From the NCBI GenBank assembly GCA_963733035.1, contig CAVTBU010000004.1, positions 96,001-160,000 on the forward strand: 64,000 nt of DNA. The letters are read 5' to 3'. This stretch comes from Pirellulales bacterium. Lineage in GTDB: Bacteria; Planctomycetota; Planctomycetia; Pirellulales; PALSA-1355. The notes under the pieces were generated by a model. The model was given only the letters and a program-made list of their open reading frames with translations. It made no database searches and was not told where the DNA came from. A program made the position numbers and the translations under genes. Shown in pieces: positions 53,706 through 58,800 of the stretch (the stretch's first letter is position 1; each line of letters opens with the position of its first letter).

Positions 53706-54737
53706 TCAATATTCCTCGGTGATTGGAGTTCCCTCGGCGCGTGTGCACAGATAACGCATCACGATCGGGTTGATCTCCTGCTGCAAGTAGCGGACGCTTC
53801 CATCGACCATTAGTGCGTTCGCTCCACCCGGATGAAAGCTAAAAATCTCGTCGTTTGGACCGCAATTGCCGGTCGTCCACGGACAATCCCCTGGTCCGCC
53901 GGTTTGCGCGCTGTTGTTATTGATCACCGCTTGCAGCTTCCCGACCGCGGAGTTCGGCGGACCCGAAACACCGGCCCCGTTGTCCGGCTCGGCCCAGCGA
54001 TTGTACGAACGCCTGCCGCTCGGCGTGGCAGGCTCCGCATTGACACCGGCTGTAATCGCTGGATCGGGATAGGGGGATACTAGAAATGGCGATAAGGTTT
54101 CATGGTTGCGACCACTATCTTCCGAGACCGCGATCGTATGGCTCGTGCCATCGGTAATTCGTGCAATCCGCACCCCGCCGAGTGTGCCCAGGGCTGAATC
54201 CATCCGAGTCGCAGTGTTGCGCACCCCGGTGTTGGGATCGATGTCGGTATACGCGACCGGCATGTAATTCGTTTCGCCGTATCCATACGGATCCTCGACT
54301 TGCAGGGCGTTGCTCGGACACAGAAATGACGGGATGTTGGTCTTGGCCGCGTATTGGTTTCCGGGGTAATTCTTATCGTTATAGAGTTGATCAATGTCGA
54401 AATGACTCATGACGTTGCCTTCTTCCATGTAGCTCAAAATGTAGGTGAACATCGAATGCTTGTCGAAGCCAGTGCTTCCGGTCTTCACGCCGGCAACCAT
54501 GGTCCAAACCGTTCCCTCACCACCAGACGGAAGTTTGCGAAGCGTCGACTCATGATTCAGAATCGCCAATCCAATCTGCTTGAGATTGTTCGTGCACTGC
54601 GACCGCCGTGCTGCCTCACGAGAGGCCTGAATTGCTGGTAGCAAGAGGCCGACGAGCACGCCGATGATGGCGATCACCACCAACAATTCCACCAAGGTAA
54701 AACCACGGGATCTCCGTAAGACAGCTTGGCGCTTCAT
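53706..54737 (-). CDS. DUF1559 protein (prepilin-type N-terminus, H-X9-DG C-terminus)
   Basis: [57 protein letters not shown]. Confidence 0.95.
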
Positions 54738-54929
54738 TGCGATTGCCCCAAAAAAAGAGTTCGATCAGGTTGGACACCACCTGGACACCGACCCAAACGC
54801 TAGCGGGACATTGCGAAAAAAAAGATGAGCGACATGTGAGAATTGCATTTAGGGCCTAATGAATTGCAAGTTCCGTATTTATCAGTCATCCCCACCTACC
54901 CAAACCCTTCCGCGCGACTGAAGTTGAGG

Positions 54930-55668
54930 GAAGTGTGACCGACCAATGAGAATCTGGCTCCGAAGGGCCTCTAGGCCAGACGACTCTTGAGACGATCGGA
55001 CTCGACATTCGACGGAACAGGTCGTGCCACGGATACGCGGCGTCGAAACGGTTCTTTCAGTTAGGTGCCACGTCGAGCCGGCAGTGGCCATCTGGGGAAC
55101 AACAACAACTCTCGATTCCCTCAGCGTGCTCTGTGCCTGCGCGGTAGCTAGTCTCCCCTAACCAAAACATTGCTGCTTGAAATCGGGCCAGCACCTGCGG
55201 CATACTCACCCGCGGTCGGATGGCCTGCGACGTGTGGACGAGCAACAAGCCTGGGACCTTGGTTGTCTTGTCTTTGGAACCTGCCCATCCCCGCCGACAC
55301 GTTTCGGCGGCACGAGGATTACGGGGTTCGCTTGCGTCCACACGTTCGCCGCTTGGCCGCGCAGATACGCGGCGCCGGGGATCCACGGCGCTGCAACTTG
55401 CGCGGCAGGTCTGGCTGTCTTTGCCGCACGAAGGTTTTTTAGCCTGGCTTGGCGGTGGCGGAAGCCGCCGTCACTTGACGTACTGGTAAAACGAGTGCTT
55501 CGTGCTGCATGCCGCGTGTCGCGCCGCTCGGTCGATGGCCGAGGAGTGACCAACTGTTAACCACTTTCAAAGTCCAATCCCGGCTCAACCGAGCACGACA
55601 CGCTTCTGTTTTTAAAAAGCGTCCAACCAAACGCCGCGCGCACCCTTGCGCGCTGGCGTTTGGTTTTT
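54930..55668 (+). ncRNA. Candidate large structured non-coding RNA of unrecognised family; 5' boundary approximate
   Basis: No credible ORF. More than 12 helices found by eye, G-U pairs and a GGAA tetraloop on the + strand, and a terminal terminator. Confidence 0.55.
55625..55668 (+). terminator. Strong intrinsic terminator
   Basis: AACCAAACGCC-GCGCGCA / TGCGCGC-T-GGCGTTTGGTT followed by TTT. Confidence 0.85.
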
Positions 55669-55877
55669 GTGGGTCAGGCCTTGGTCTGGCAGATGTCCCT
55701 CGTGCGCGCTCACCTCGGGCACGGCCTGACGTATGGGCCTGTCGAGTTGGCCGTGAAAATCGCCCCATTCGGCCCCCATTGCCCACCCAACACCGATTGA
55801 AACTGAACGTCCTAACTGGTCTACTTGTCCATTCTTCTGACATTTGCAGTCGCTCTTGGAACCGTTTTGCTGGAATC

Positions 55878-58800
55878 ATGTTTCGTCCCGTACCCGCGTC
55901 GGTCCGTTTTCCCGAGCTTGAGACCGAAATCGGTCAATTTTGGAAGTCGGAAAAGATCTACGAAAAGTCACTGGCGGCCCGGGCCGACGCGCCCCGCTTC
56001 GTCTTCTACGAGGGTCCGCCCACCGCCAACGGCCTGCCCCACCCGGGACATTGCCTCACGCGGGCGATCAAGGACCTGTTTCCGCGGTATCGCACGATGC
56101 GCGGCTACTTGTGCCAGCGAAAGGCCGGCTGGGACACGCACGGGCTGCCGGTGGAAGTCGAGGTATCCAAGGAGTTGGGCATTCACTCCAAGGAGGAAAT
56201 TGAGCGTTACGGCGTTGAACCGTTCATTCACAAATGCCTCGAAAGCGTGTTTCGCTACACGCAGCAGTGGGAGCGGCTCACCGAGCGGCTGGCCTTTTGG
56301 ATTGATCTGAACGAGGCTTACGTCACCTACCACCAGAGCTACATCGAGAGCGTCTGGTGGGCGCTTAAGAACCTGTTCGATCGCGGCCTATTGTATCAGG
56401 GCTATAAGATCGTCTGGTGGTGGGCGCAGGGAGGCACCGCTCTCAGCTCCGGCGAAGTGGGCCAAGGCTATCGCGAGGTCGCCGATCCGAGCGTGTTCGT
56501 GCGGTTTCCGCTGGTCGACGAACCCGACACGTCGTTGCTGGTCTGGACGACCACACCCTGGACGCTGCCGAGCAATCAATTCGCTGCCGTGCATCCGGAA
56601 TTGGAATACTCCGTCGTGACCGACGGCGAAGGCCGCAAGTTGATCGTCGCCAGCGCCCTGGTCGAGGAGGTCGCCGCGAAGGCCAAGCAAGAATTTCAGG
56701 TTGTCGAAAGGCGGCAGGGCAAAGACTTGCTGGGGCTGCGTTACGTCCCGCCGTTCGACTATTACTACAAGTCGCTGGGCAGCAAGACGGGCAAGCTCCA
56801 GGCCGGCGGCCAGCAGCACATTGCTTGGCGCGTGGTGGCGGCCGAGTTTGTCACGACCGACAGTGGCACCGGCGTCGTGCATCAAGCACCAGCTTTTGGC
56901 GAAGTCGACTACGACGTGTTGCAGGCTGAGCAAGCCAGGTTCGTCGACGCCGAAGGCCCGGAATTGATCTGCGCCGTGGGCCCCGATGGTAAATTCACGG
57001 CCGAGGCGCCCGATTACCTGGGCCGCTGGGTGAAGGAAGCCGACAAGGACATTTCGCGCGAGCTGCGGCGCCGAGAGCTCTTGTTCCATCAGGAACAGTA
57101 CCTGCACGAGTATCCGTTCTGTTGGAGGGCGGAAGAGGATCCGCTGATTCAGTATCCGCGGCAAAGCTGGTTCATCCGCACCACGCAATACAAGGACCAG
57201 ATGCTGGCCAACAACCGGCAGATCAACTGGTTGCCCGAGCATATCAAGGAGGGCCGCTTCGGCAATTTCCTGGAGAGCAACGTCGACTGGGCCCTCTCCC
57301 GCGAGCGCTACTGGGGCACGCCGCTGCCCATCTGGGTTTGCAGCGCGACCGGCCGCGCCGAAGCGGTTTCGAGCTACGGCGAACTGCTCGCCAAGCCGGG
57401 CGTCGCGGGCATCGAGGTCTGGCAAAAAGCAAAAGCGAGCAACCCAGATTTGTCGGACCACCTCAAAGTTCACAAGCCGTACATCGACGCGGTGACCTAC
57501 ACCTCGCCGTTCGATCCCCGGGGGACGATGCGCCGCGTATCGGAAGTGATCGACGGCTGGTTCGATTCCGGCGCGATGCCGTTCGCGCAGTGGGGCTACC
57601 CGCATGCGGGGCACGACAGGTTCGAGAAGCAGTTCCCGGCGGACTTCATCAGCGAGGCGATCGACCAGACGCGCGGCTGGTTCTATAGCCAACTGGCCGT
57701 CAGCACGCTGTTGTTTAGCGATCAGGATTCCAAGGATCCCGACCGGCCGGCCCACGCTTTCCCGCACCCGTTCCGCAATTGCATCGTGCTGGGGCTGATG
57801 CTGGGCGAAGACGGCCAGAAGATGTCCAAGAGCAAGCGAAACTATCGCGAACCGCAGGAGATCTTCGACCGCTATGGCGCCGATGCGCTGCGTTGGTACT
57901 TTTTCGCGAATCAGCCCCCTTGGACGTCGATCCGCTACAACGAACAGGCGATCAAGGACAGCATTCCCGAGTTCCTGCTGCGGCTGTGGAACGTCTATAG
58001 CTTCTTCGTGATCTATGCCAATATCGACGGTTTCGATCCCGCGGCCGCCATCTCGGGCAAGGCAACTCAACTATCCGCGGCAGAGTTCCCCACGGCCAAA
58101 ACCTATCGACCCATCTCGGATCGATCGGAGCTTGACCGCTGGATCCTCAGCGAACTACATCGTACGGTCGCCGCCGTGGTCGAGCACATGGACGCGTACG
58201 ACAACTTCGCCGCGTGCGGCGCGGTCACGCAGTTTGTCGACGCATTGTCGAATTGGTATGTGCGCCGCAGCCGCGATCGCTTTTGGGCCGAAGACAAAAC
58301 GTCGCCCGATAAGCTCGACGCGTATTGGACGCTCTACGAATGCCTGTTGACTACGTCCAAGTTGGTCGCGCCGTTCGTACCCTATCTGGCCGAGGCCATT
58401 TGGCAAAACCTGGCCTCGGCCGAGTTCGGCGATCGCGTGGCCGAAAGTGTCCACCTGGTCGATTTCCCCCAGGCCGACGCCAAGGTAATCGACGCGCAGC
58501 TCTCCGAACGGATGAGCCTGGTGCGCGAGATCGTTTCACTTGGCCGCGCCGCCCGCATGGGCGCGAAGCTCAAAGTGCGGCAACCGCTGGCCAAGGTCGA
58601 AGTCATCCTGGCCGATCGCACGCATCAGAGTTGGCTGCAAGACCACGCGGCGCTGATCGCGGAGGAACTGAACGTCAAGCAAGTGGAATACACCGAAAAG
58701 GCGGACCAGTACATCACCTACACGGTGCTCCCCGATCTGAAGCGGCTCGGCCCACGATTGGGAAAGCAGTTGCCGGAGGTGAAGAAAGCTTTGGCTGCTG

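Follow-up and report, generated by a model that had tools for sequence, protein, structure and literature searches.

The 64,000-nt stretch of DNA analysed here (the window; contig CAVTBU010000004.1 of the Pirellulales bacterium assembly GCA_963733035.1) raises the question of what occupies the gap between a DUF1559/prepilin-type gene (53706-54737, minus strand) on the left and ileS, whose ATG stands at 55878 on the plus strand, on the right. The original prediction had described this gap as about 1.1 kb long and devoid of a credible open reading frame (ORF), and had placed in it a single, highly structured non-coding RNA of about 740 nt (54930-55668). The gap does span 1140 nt (54738-55877), and the ORFs within it keep no frame across the family members described below. 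The RNA itself has to be redrawn: its first 245 nt are excluded, and what is left is not confined to one locus. Indeed, we found that the element at this place is a repeat unit of about 490 bp (55175-55671) which exists in the same genome as 15 full copies and one truncated copy. We propose that the window carries one member of a gene family, dispersed through the genome, that specifies a large structured non-coding RNA, a reading which, when self-pairing of the RNA is included, we consider somewhat better than evenly balanced. That a selected, structured, multi-copy RNA gene is present at the locus is very likely.

Comparison of the window unit with its own assembly (10 contigs) by BLAST returned six further copies with 96-99% identity and a truncated copy of 246 nt, and a profile made from these close copies detected eight more distant members in the same genome (nhmmer). 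The full copies were grouped into three subfamilies, S1 with seven members (including the window copy, named A), S2 with four and S3 with four, which differ by many insertions and deletions whose lengths are not multiples of three. Two covariance models of the 3' domain, one built on the 15 own copies (R1) and the other on R1 plus seven sister-species sequences (R2), both detect exactly 15 3' domains in this genome, with scores of 97-128 bits. Neither the 437 nt on the left of the unit (54738-55174) nor the 206 nt on its right has a second copy in the genome. The truncated copy corresponds to the first 246 nt of the S1 unit (C7:162382-162627 of this genome, G000; L026:4003-4248) and sits 1.55 kb upstream of the complete copy F, with a left flank common to both. 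Within S1, internal variants are spread over the copies in conflicting, mosaic patterns, which indicates that copies have recombined or undergone gene conversion with one another.

Taken in its entirety, the 739-nt stretch is more stably folded than its dinucleotide shuffles, with z scores of -4.38 on the plus strand and -4.55 on the minus strand (20 shuffles each); however, this signal is confined to its 3' part. For 55207-55613, the plus-strand fold reaches -190.7 kcal/mol (z -3.87, 0 of 100 shuffles as good) and the minus-strand fold -178.5 kcal/mol (z -3.32, 1 of 100 shuffles as good), the former being 12 kcal/mol more stable. According to the minimum-energy fold, the RNA would begin with a 5' rod, followed by a platform that bears the apical hairpin, then by a three-way junction and finally by the 3' domain (Table 1). 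Part of the helices listed in the original prediction were recovered in this fold, namely the rod helix 55230-40/55335-45, the hairpin 55371-92, the junction 55426-33/55498-505 with its GGAA hairpin (55450-73), the 3' domain stem 55514-21/55596-603 and the terminator, and the description of a plus-strand, multi-domain, free-standing RNA gene is upheld for the 3' part. Other helices did not survive: the hairpin 55402-27 competes with a helix favoured by the fold and by the other subfamilies, and the long-range helix 55197-203/55509-15 falls in the putative promoter spacer and -10 box, has no matching pairing in S2 and S3, and is broken in copy F by a G-to-C change. The platform helix region is the most variable part among S1 copies, and hairpin-flanking helices equivalent to the platform (of the CUCC.../...GGAG type) are found in S2, S3 and the sister species. 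A GGAA(A) loop is present in S2, S3 and most sister-species copies on a hairpin whose place apparently corresponds to that of the junction hairpin.

The way in which the sequence changes between family members also bears on this fold. In a 22-sequence alignment of the 3' domain, fitted to the structure, 96.9% of the cells are paired and 5 of the 20 pairs are changed on both sides (17 cells). The covariation score of this alignment is 0.269, compared with 0.146 for shuffles (0 of 500 as high), and sliding one strand by 1-3 columns brings the pairing down to 27-52%. The outer stem of the domain differs in sequence from one lineage to another and is always complementary. Within the subfamilies, where stems were predicted with RNAalifold, all five single stem substitutions in S1 are transitions giving G-U on the plus strand and A-C on the minus strand, seven pairs in S2 are changed to G-U on the plus strand and to a mismatch on the minus strand, and seven pairs in S3 are changed on both sides. 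The three independent C-to-U changes in the S1 rod also give G-U in every case on the plus strand and A-C mismatches on the minus strand. The 5' halves of the three subfamilies are not reliably alignable (MAFFT) and gave no consensus structure for the rod and junction domains. Taken over the family, sequence change keeps the plus-strand base pairs, which indicates that the fold is under selection.

Each copy of the unit starts with C-TTGAAATC. All 15 copies have in common a TTGAAA box followed, after 18 nt, by CAnAmT (CACAAT or CAAAAT in S2 and S3), and the seven sister-species copies have TTGAAA-18-CAGACT with the same spacing. In the window, this site is the sole sigma-70-like match in 54600-56000 (1 found compared with 0.3 expected), and we read the motif as a putative sigma-70-type promoter. 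An A/T-rich block, then 4-7 G+C-rich bases, precedes TTGAAA in 15 of 15 copies and in the truncated one, the flanks otherwise differing among copies outside this block; it may serve as an UP-like element or, if the RNA starts at TTGAAA as considered below, as a -10 box. At the opposite end, the 3' domain common to all copies is followed by T-rich sequence and a G+C-rich hairpin, the latter being a canonical terminator in S1 and a strong one in the window copy; this terminator is seen in the fold, and the repeat stops with it on the 3' side in copies A, B and C. A near-identical unit start, TTGAAATCGGGCCAGC, was observed before unrelated sequence in the relative G001 (C8 about 75056-75081; L011), and this head motif may occur also apart from the RNA. 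Weak BLAST matches to the promoter region in G001, G034 and G051 were discarded, two of them being coding and the third a similar promoter-like motif before unrelated sequence.

The apical hairpin bears on the possible mode of action of the RNA. Its loop in the window copy (55378-85) encloses a 6-nt palindrome (55379-84), and the same form, G-N6-A with a 6-nt palindrome, is found in 14 of the 15 copies with five different palindromes (Table 1). Loop "pairs" were defined as positions 2-7, 3-6 and 4-5 in the S1 and S2 alignment only (MAFFT misaligned the S3 hairpins): all three are complementary in the seven distinct S1/S2 rows, both partners of every pair vary, and the central pair, made of neighbouring bases, takes the forms GC, CG, AU and UA. 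In the sister species, the homologous hairpin is topped by palindromes of 6-10 nt. When the remaining predicted loops of at least 6 nt in the G000 copies are considered, 6-nt palindromes are found only in two 21-nt loops. The second hairpin of the rod domain carries in S1 an ACGU-type motif in its loop, and a similar motif is found in S2 and in the sister species.

Loops of this kind have been described in other large RNAs. OLE L9.3 and GOLLD L21a are described as symmetric intermolecular kissing loops that switch between palindromes, and the argument put forward is that adjacent bases are unable to pair within one chain, hence intermolecular pairing (Kretsch et al., Nature 2025, PMC12286853). 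The feature that characterises symmetric kissing loops in that study, a self-complementary and covarying loop core, is found in the family. Because the loop N6 stays self-complementary while differing between copies, the RNA probably homodimerises via a symmetric kissing loop, by analogy with these systems. The G-N6-A loop would pair with the same loop of a second molecule, giving loop-loop homodimers; larger assemblies could form if the second small palindromic loop also pairs, and the different palindromes would sort copies into separate pairing classes. We infer that the most likely mode of action that can be supported is for the RNA to associate with itself by a symmetric kissing loop, one genome having several pairing codes.

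Table 1. Predicted features of the window copy, loop palindromes of the family and the transposase gene next to copy G (positions are those of the window unless another locus is named).
Feature	Position	Strand	Details
A/T-rich box	55161-55171	+	6-16 nt upstream of TTGAAA
Promoter-like site	55177-55206	+	TTGAAA 55177-82, 18-nt spacer, CATACT 55201-06
Predicted transcript	about 55212-55668	+	about 457 nt; start from -10 box, end from terminator
5' rod and branch domain	55227-55348	+	closed by 55227-40/55335-48; minimum-energy fold
Second hairpin in rod domain	55291-55310	+	ACGU within loop
Platform helix	55355-55409	+	55356-63/55399-406, bears apical hairpin; minimum-energy fold
Apical hairpin	55371-55392	+	7-bp stem, 8-nt loop G-GGAUCC-A
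Loop N6, copies A and F			GGAUCC
Loop N6, copies C, D, E and G			GGUACC
Loop N6, S2a-c			CUGCAG
Loop N6, S2d			CUCGAG
Loop N6, S3			GGUACC in S3a, GGCGCC in S3b-d
Three-way junction domain	55426-55505	+	closed by 55426-33/55498-505; holds 10-bp GGAA hairpin 55450-73
Conserved 3' domain	55514-55603	+	outer stem 55514-21/55596-603 and 55527-34/55586-93
Inner helix of 3' domain	55537-45/55578-85	+	conserved loop with UAACC
Intrinsic terminator	55627-55668	+	about 15-bp G+C-rich stem 55627-41/55648-63, 6-nt loop, TTTTT 55664-68
IS200-type Y1 transposase gene	L027:3378-3839 (G000 C8:11393-11854)	divergent	153 aa, 86 bits; about 160 nt from copy G

The distribution of the family was explored with both covariance models. 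Among 33 genomes of the taxonomic family, R1 gave 15 matches in the own genome, four in G002, three in G003 and a weak match in G011; with R2 (E up to 0.1), the corresponding numbers were 15 in G000, five in G002 and three in G003, with no match in 29 genomes of 14 other genera of that family. A search of 151 genomes sampled from the order, with stricter filters, gave matches only in G000 and G003 and one weak match in G078. The weak matches of G011 (25-26 bits) and G078 (32 bits) were rejected, both being inside long ORFs and without the inner helix. The RNAs of the sister species reach a greater length, 568-712 nt between the -10 box and the last base of the 3' domain, and are preceded by the same promoter-type motif; one of them has an extra, near-perfect hairpin of about 140 nt inserted inside the RNA (L079:1198-1336). 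With a sister-species copy as BLAST query, G002 and G003 gave many additional partial copies, each truncated where its contig ends, and G001 gave fragments at two contig ends. A pattern scan of metagenomes returned four matches; each of them lies at the end of a contig and is nearly the same as the sister-species type, so that they add no diversity. Because the copies of relatives and metagenomes stop at contig ends, we consider that the element collapses short-read assemblies, and the copy numbers outside G000 are underestimates; the element is probably present in all four species of the genus. An exact-pattern scan of one genome per species over bacteria and archaea gave 35 scattered single matches, which is the chance level, and the sole planctomycete match (L064) fails the covariance model. 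Among the genomes searched, the family appears to be restricted to one planctomycete genus.

Known RNA families do not account for the element. The original prediction had noted that hallmarks of RNase P, transfer-messenger RNA (tmRNA), signal recognition particle (SRP) RNA, T-box or intron were lacking, and consistent with this no Rfam 15 family, including OLE, GOLLD, ROOL, HEARO, raiA, T-box, the riboswitches and the group I/II introns, reached its gathering threshold in the 64-kb window. At E up to 10, the region 54650-55950 gave only P5 (17.7 bits against 60) and P17 (11.9 against 45), both at chance level (E 3.2 and 3.5). At E up to 1, five sister-species loci gave only MIR538, a chance match (33 bits against 100) that is due to the hairpin inserted in the L079 copy. 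The housekeeping RNAs were found elsewhere in the genome: RNase P RNA at C5:577748-578166 (267 bits), tmRNA at C3:1-347 (127 bits, the gene being cut by the start of contig C3) and SRP RNA at C5:806302-806400 (63 bits). The Rfam 6S model has no match in the own genome, and an identity with 6S RNA, whose roughly 180-nt rod has an open-promoter-like bubble at its centre and which usually occurs in 1-2 copies, was rejected for an RNA of about 460 nt that is branched and has 15 copies. The idea of a CsrA sponge was dropped, GGA motifs being no commoner than chance as judged by eye only. Within a limited full-text collection of the literature, we found no description of such an RNA in planctomycetes.

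The copies do not occupy conserved places. None of the six copies tested has an orthologue at the same place and in the same orientation in relatives. S2a lies within a block of 2.84 kb, in place of which all three relatives have only 205-228 nt between the same flanks. Copy D likewise lies within a block of 2.1 kb where relatives have 104-160 nt, and copies A, B and S3c are at synteny breaks. For the window copy, nothing upstream of 55786 is syntenic in the three relatives. S2d fills the 643 nt that separate an HD-domain gene from a TfoX-like gene (L031:3939-4581); the corresponding spacer is 12 nt long in G003, has an unrelated insert of about 1.6 kb with a minus-strand ORF in G002, and contains in G001 a family member that is oppositely oriented and runs into the contig end. 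This HD/TfoX spacer (L031, L117, L118, L120) is an insertion hot spot. Because the tested copies occupy lineage-specific insertions or synteny breaks, the family turns over between species, and these copies have not long resided at their sites. The S2a block also includes two tandem 270-aa leucine-rich-repeat ORFs (L028:2209-3899) directly upstream of S2a.

The ends of the units and their surroundings were inspected for the marks of mobile elements. The seven S1 units have no terminal inverted repeats (score 6 compared with a shuffled mean of about 6.3) and none of them has a target-site duplication. Their left ends are ragged: copies B, C and D share about 11 more bases, copies F and G and the truncated copy share another set, and copies A and E share four. 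The right ends are ragged as well, with 75 more bases shared by copies D to G and about 170 by F and G, and the end-sharing groups conflict between the left and right sides. A class of classical DNA transposons or miniature inverted-repeat transposable elements (MITEs) was discarded on these grounds. A Y1 transposase gene is the neighbour of only one of the 15 copies (G; Table 1), and the eight other Y1_Tnp genes of the genome are not near any copy; a link to the IS200-type transposase was therefore rejected. A class of IS200/IS605 elements or their RNA-guided derivatives was likewise rejected, the scanned neighbours of the copies containing no TnpB, IscB or IsrB-like gene. Three of the eight other Y1_Tnp genes cluster on contig C6 near 841-845 kb. 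Short palindromes resembling repetitive extragenic palindromic (REP) sequences, GTCAGGCC...GGCCTGAC, are found at 55669-55735 of the window and also downstream of copies D and G (L024, L027), and a second REP-like motif, CCTTGGTGG with its complement, comes after copies D-G, S2a and S2b. In the sister species, a different motif of the CTCTGCGGTGAATC type lies on both sides of the copies, and it is also found in other genera of the taxonomic family.

Several other explanations of the locus have to be weighed against an RNA gene family. That a single RNA of about 740 nt covers 54930-55668 is hardly credible, even though the whole stretch folds better than shuffles: the 5' 245 nt (54930-55174) show no folding signal above that of shuffles (z +0.54; 146 of 200 shuffles were equally or more stable), the helices proposed at 54953-55120 are at chance level, and this part is missing from the other 15 loci and lies upstream of the conserved promoter-like motif, so that the claim of a structured RNA holds for about 55175-55671 only. 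We give as little weight to a small or unusual protein whose G+C-rich coding sequence would produce the structure as a by-product; stop-free stretches of up to 130 codons exist in several frames, but translated similarity is found in all frames and on both strands with the frame shifting along the alignment, and many indels between subfamilies have lengths not divisible by three. Regulation in cis, by a leader (riboswitch, attenuator or T-box-like) that would act through the terminators on ileS and the other downstream genes, is a very improbable explanation too. It would agree with the orientation of the copies, which is that of the next gene for 13 of the 15 (longest-ORF calls) and for 7 of 7 where this gene has a Pfam domain, with the terminators that end the copies, and with an alternative pairing available to the 5' strand of the outer stem of the 3' domain, which could pair with the segment that follows. 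However, no common function links the genes downstream of the copies (ileS, P450, esterase, phosphoesterase, TfoX, DNA methylase, AAA ATPase and unknowns), the copies are near-identical whatever gene comes next, no riboswitch or T-box model matches, and the competing outer stem is a perfect 14-bp helix in the sister species. Moreover, the ileS orthologues of the three relatives are without the RNA element and share with the window only 55786 onward, with about 80% identity; 55786-55877, the 92 nt before the ileS ATG, is probably the ileS promoter and leader. As ileS keeps its own conserved 92-nt upstream region, it therefore appears independent of the element, and the RNA would act in trans rather than on ileS. 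In our reading, the orientation bias results from avoidance of antisense read-through or is a by-product of the way copies insert; it does not point to regulation.

A more serious rival, doubtful in our view yet deserving attention, is that the units are mainly selfish or mobile DNA, that is to say a non-autonomous repeat with a promoter and a terminator whose fold serves propagation or nothing, and whose copies may, as a "mobile promoter", happen to drive the genes beside them or to insulate them. The high copy number, the 96-99% identity of S1 copies to the window copy, the assemblies of sister species and metagenomes that break within the element, the lack of positional orthologues for the six tested copies and the co-orientation with the next ORF all agree with it. 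Against it stand the lack of terminal inverted repeats and target duplications in S1, copy ends that are ragged and shared in conflicting groups, and a transposase beside a single copy; compensatory change also keeps the stems and the loop palindrome across subfamilies and species, which argues for selection on the RNA itself. The two readings are not exclusive of each other. A number of points weigh, in turn, against the family of self-pairing RNA genes that we favour. Its narrow distribution, ragged ends and lineage-specific placement fit a selfish repeat equally well. Diversity is low, with about 10 distinct types from four close species, and the covariation amounts to few events; the fitting of the 22-sequence alignment to the structure biases the result in favour, and the stems within subfamilies were predicted from the same sequences as those scored. 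As regards the loop, the evidence consists of only five palindromes in one genome, the S3 palindromic loop is carried by a different hairpin, and the palindrome of copy B is broken by a one-base insertion (GGAUACC). Concerning the head of the unit, the -10 box is weak (4 of 6 matches, and 3 of 6 in the sister species), the 18-nt "spacer" is more conserved than expected of a spacer, and it pairs with the 5' region of the RNA (GGCCA/UGGCC in all G000 copies, 8 bp in S3b-d). Because this spacer is unusually conserved and able to pair with the RNA 5' region, the RNA may instead begin at TTGAAA (about 55177), with the flanking A/T box as its -10 element.

On balance, we propose with a slight leaning in its favour that the element is a new, genus-restricted, multi-copy large non-coding RNA of about 460 nt that probably homodimerises. 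A bolder proposal, which we regard as rather unlikely, is that it represents a new class of spreading RNA gene, the transcripts of which would self-assemble by one or two symmetric kissing loops into dimers or larger bodies made of RNA only, with palindromes as sorting codes that separate the subfamilies, and which would multiply and change place in the chromosome with neither a transposase nor inverted ends nor target duplications. Should the RNA begin at TTGAAA, the unit and the transcript would be the same, and the transcript could be the vehicle of spread. Few large structured RNAs of unknown function are known in bacteria and every one has been informative, recent cryo-electron microscopy having revealed that several build RNA-only assemblies; the present family would add one from a phylum in which hardly any non-coding RNA has been described. 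The palindrome of its loop predicts self-association, for which the five natural palindromes of one genome are built-in compensatory mutants. Furthermore, 15 near-identical, mosaic and lineage-specific copies raise the question of how an RNA gene without transposon features multiplies. In practice, the element breaks short-read assemblies of the genus, and its annotation would prevent its spurious ORFs from being called.

Compared with known systems, the family has partial likenesses to several. As MITEs, REP-type repeats and "mobile promoters" are, the units are short, dispersed, intergenic and non-coding, are lineage-specific and have promoter-like sequence as those elements often do, and REP-like palindromes adjoin several copies; unlike MITEs and REP repeats, they lack inverted repeats and target duplications, and have a much longer, branched fold that is kept by compensatory change. 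With HEARO, the IscB-type omega RNAs and other IS200/IS605 derivatives that bear an RNA they share the format of structured units of a few hundred bases in many copies, often without an adjacent ORF, as well as the absence of inverted ends and target duplications. However, the HEARO model gives no match, no IscB, IsrB or TnpB-like gene was found among the scanned neighbours of the copies, the Y1 transposase is beside one copy only, and the unit ends in a terminator and not in a guide-flank junction.

Qrr and RsmX/Y/Z are regulatory RNA paralogues of 100-350 nt, kept similar by gene conversion, with 2-5 copies and known protein or mRNA targets. The present family resembles them as a set of paralogous RNA genes, each with a promoter and a terminator and with mosaic similarity, and differs by a longer RNA, by its 15 copies and in that no target is evident. 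The dimerisation initiation site of HIV-1 has a loop that consists of a 6-nt palindrome flanked by purines, and lineages use alternative self-pairing palindromes; this palindromic loop is similar to that of the apical hairpin, but it belongs to a viral genome-packaging signal and has no homology with it.

Finally, the closest parallels are with OLE, GOLLD and ROOL, which are also large, multi-domain, free-standing bacterial RNAs without known catalytic or housekeeping role, and which form homo-oligomers made of RNA only. The family matches none of their Rfam models and differs from them by its smaller size (about 460 nt), by its occurrence in one genus with 15 copies per genome and several loop "codes", and in that no link to prophages or to a particular neighbouring gene was seen. 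OLE and GOLLD have, as does the family presented here, a hairpin loop with a self-complementary core that switches palindromes (PMC12286853), oligomerisation being in our case suggested by the sequences.

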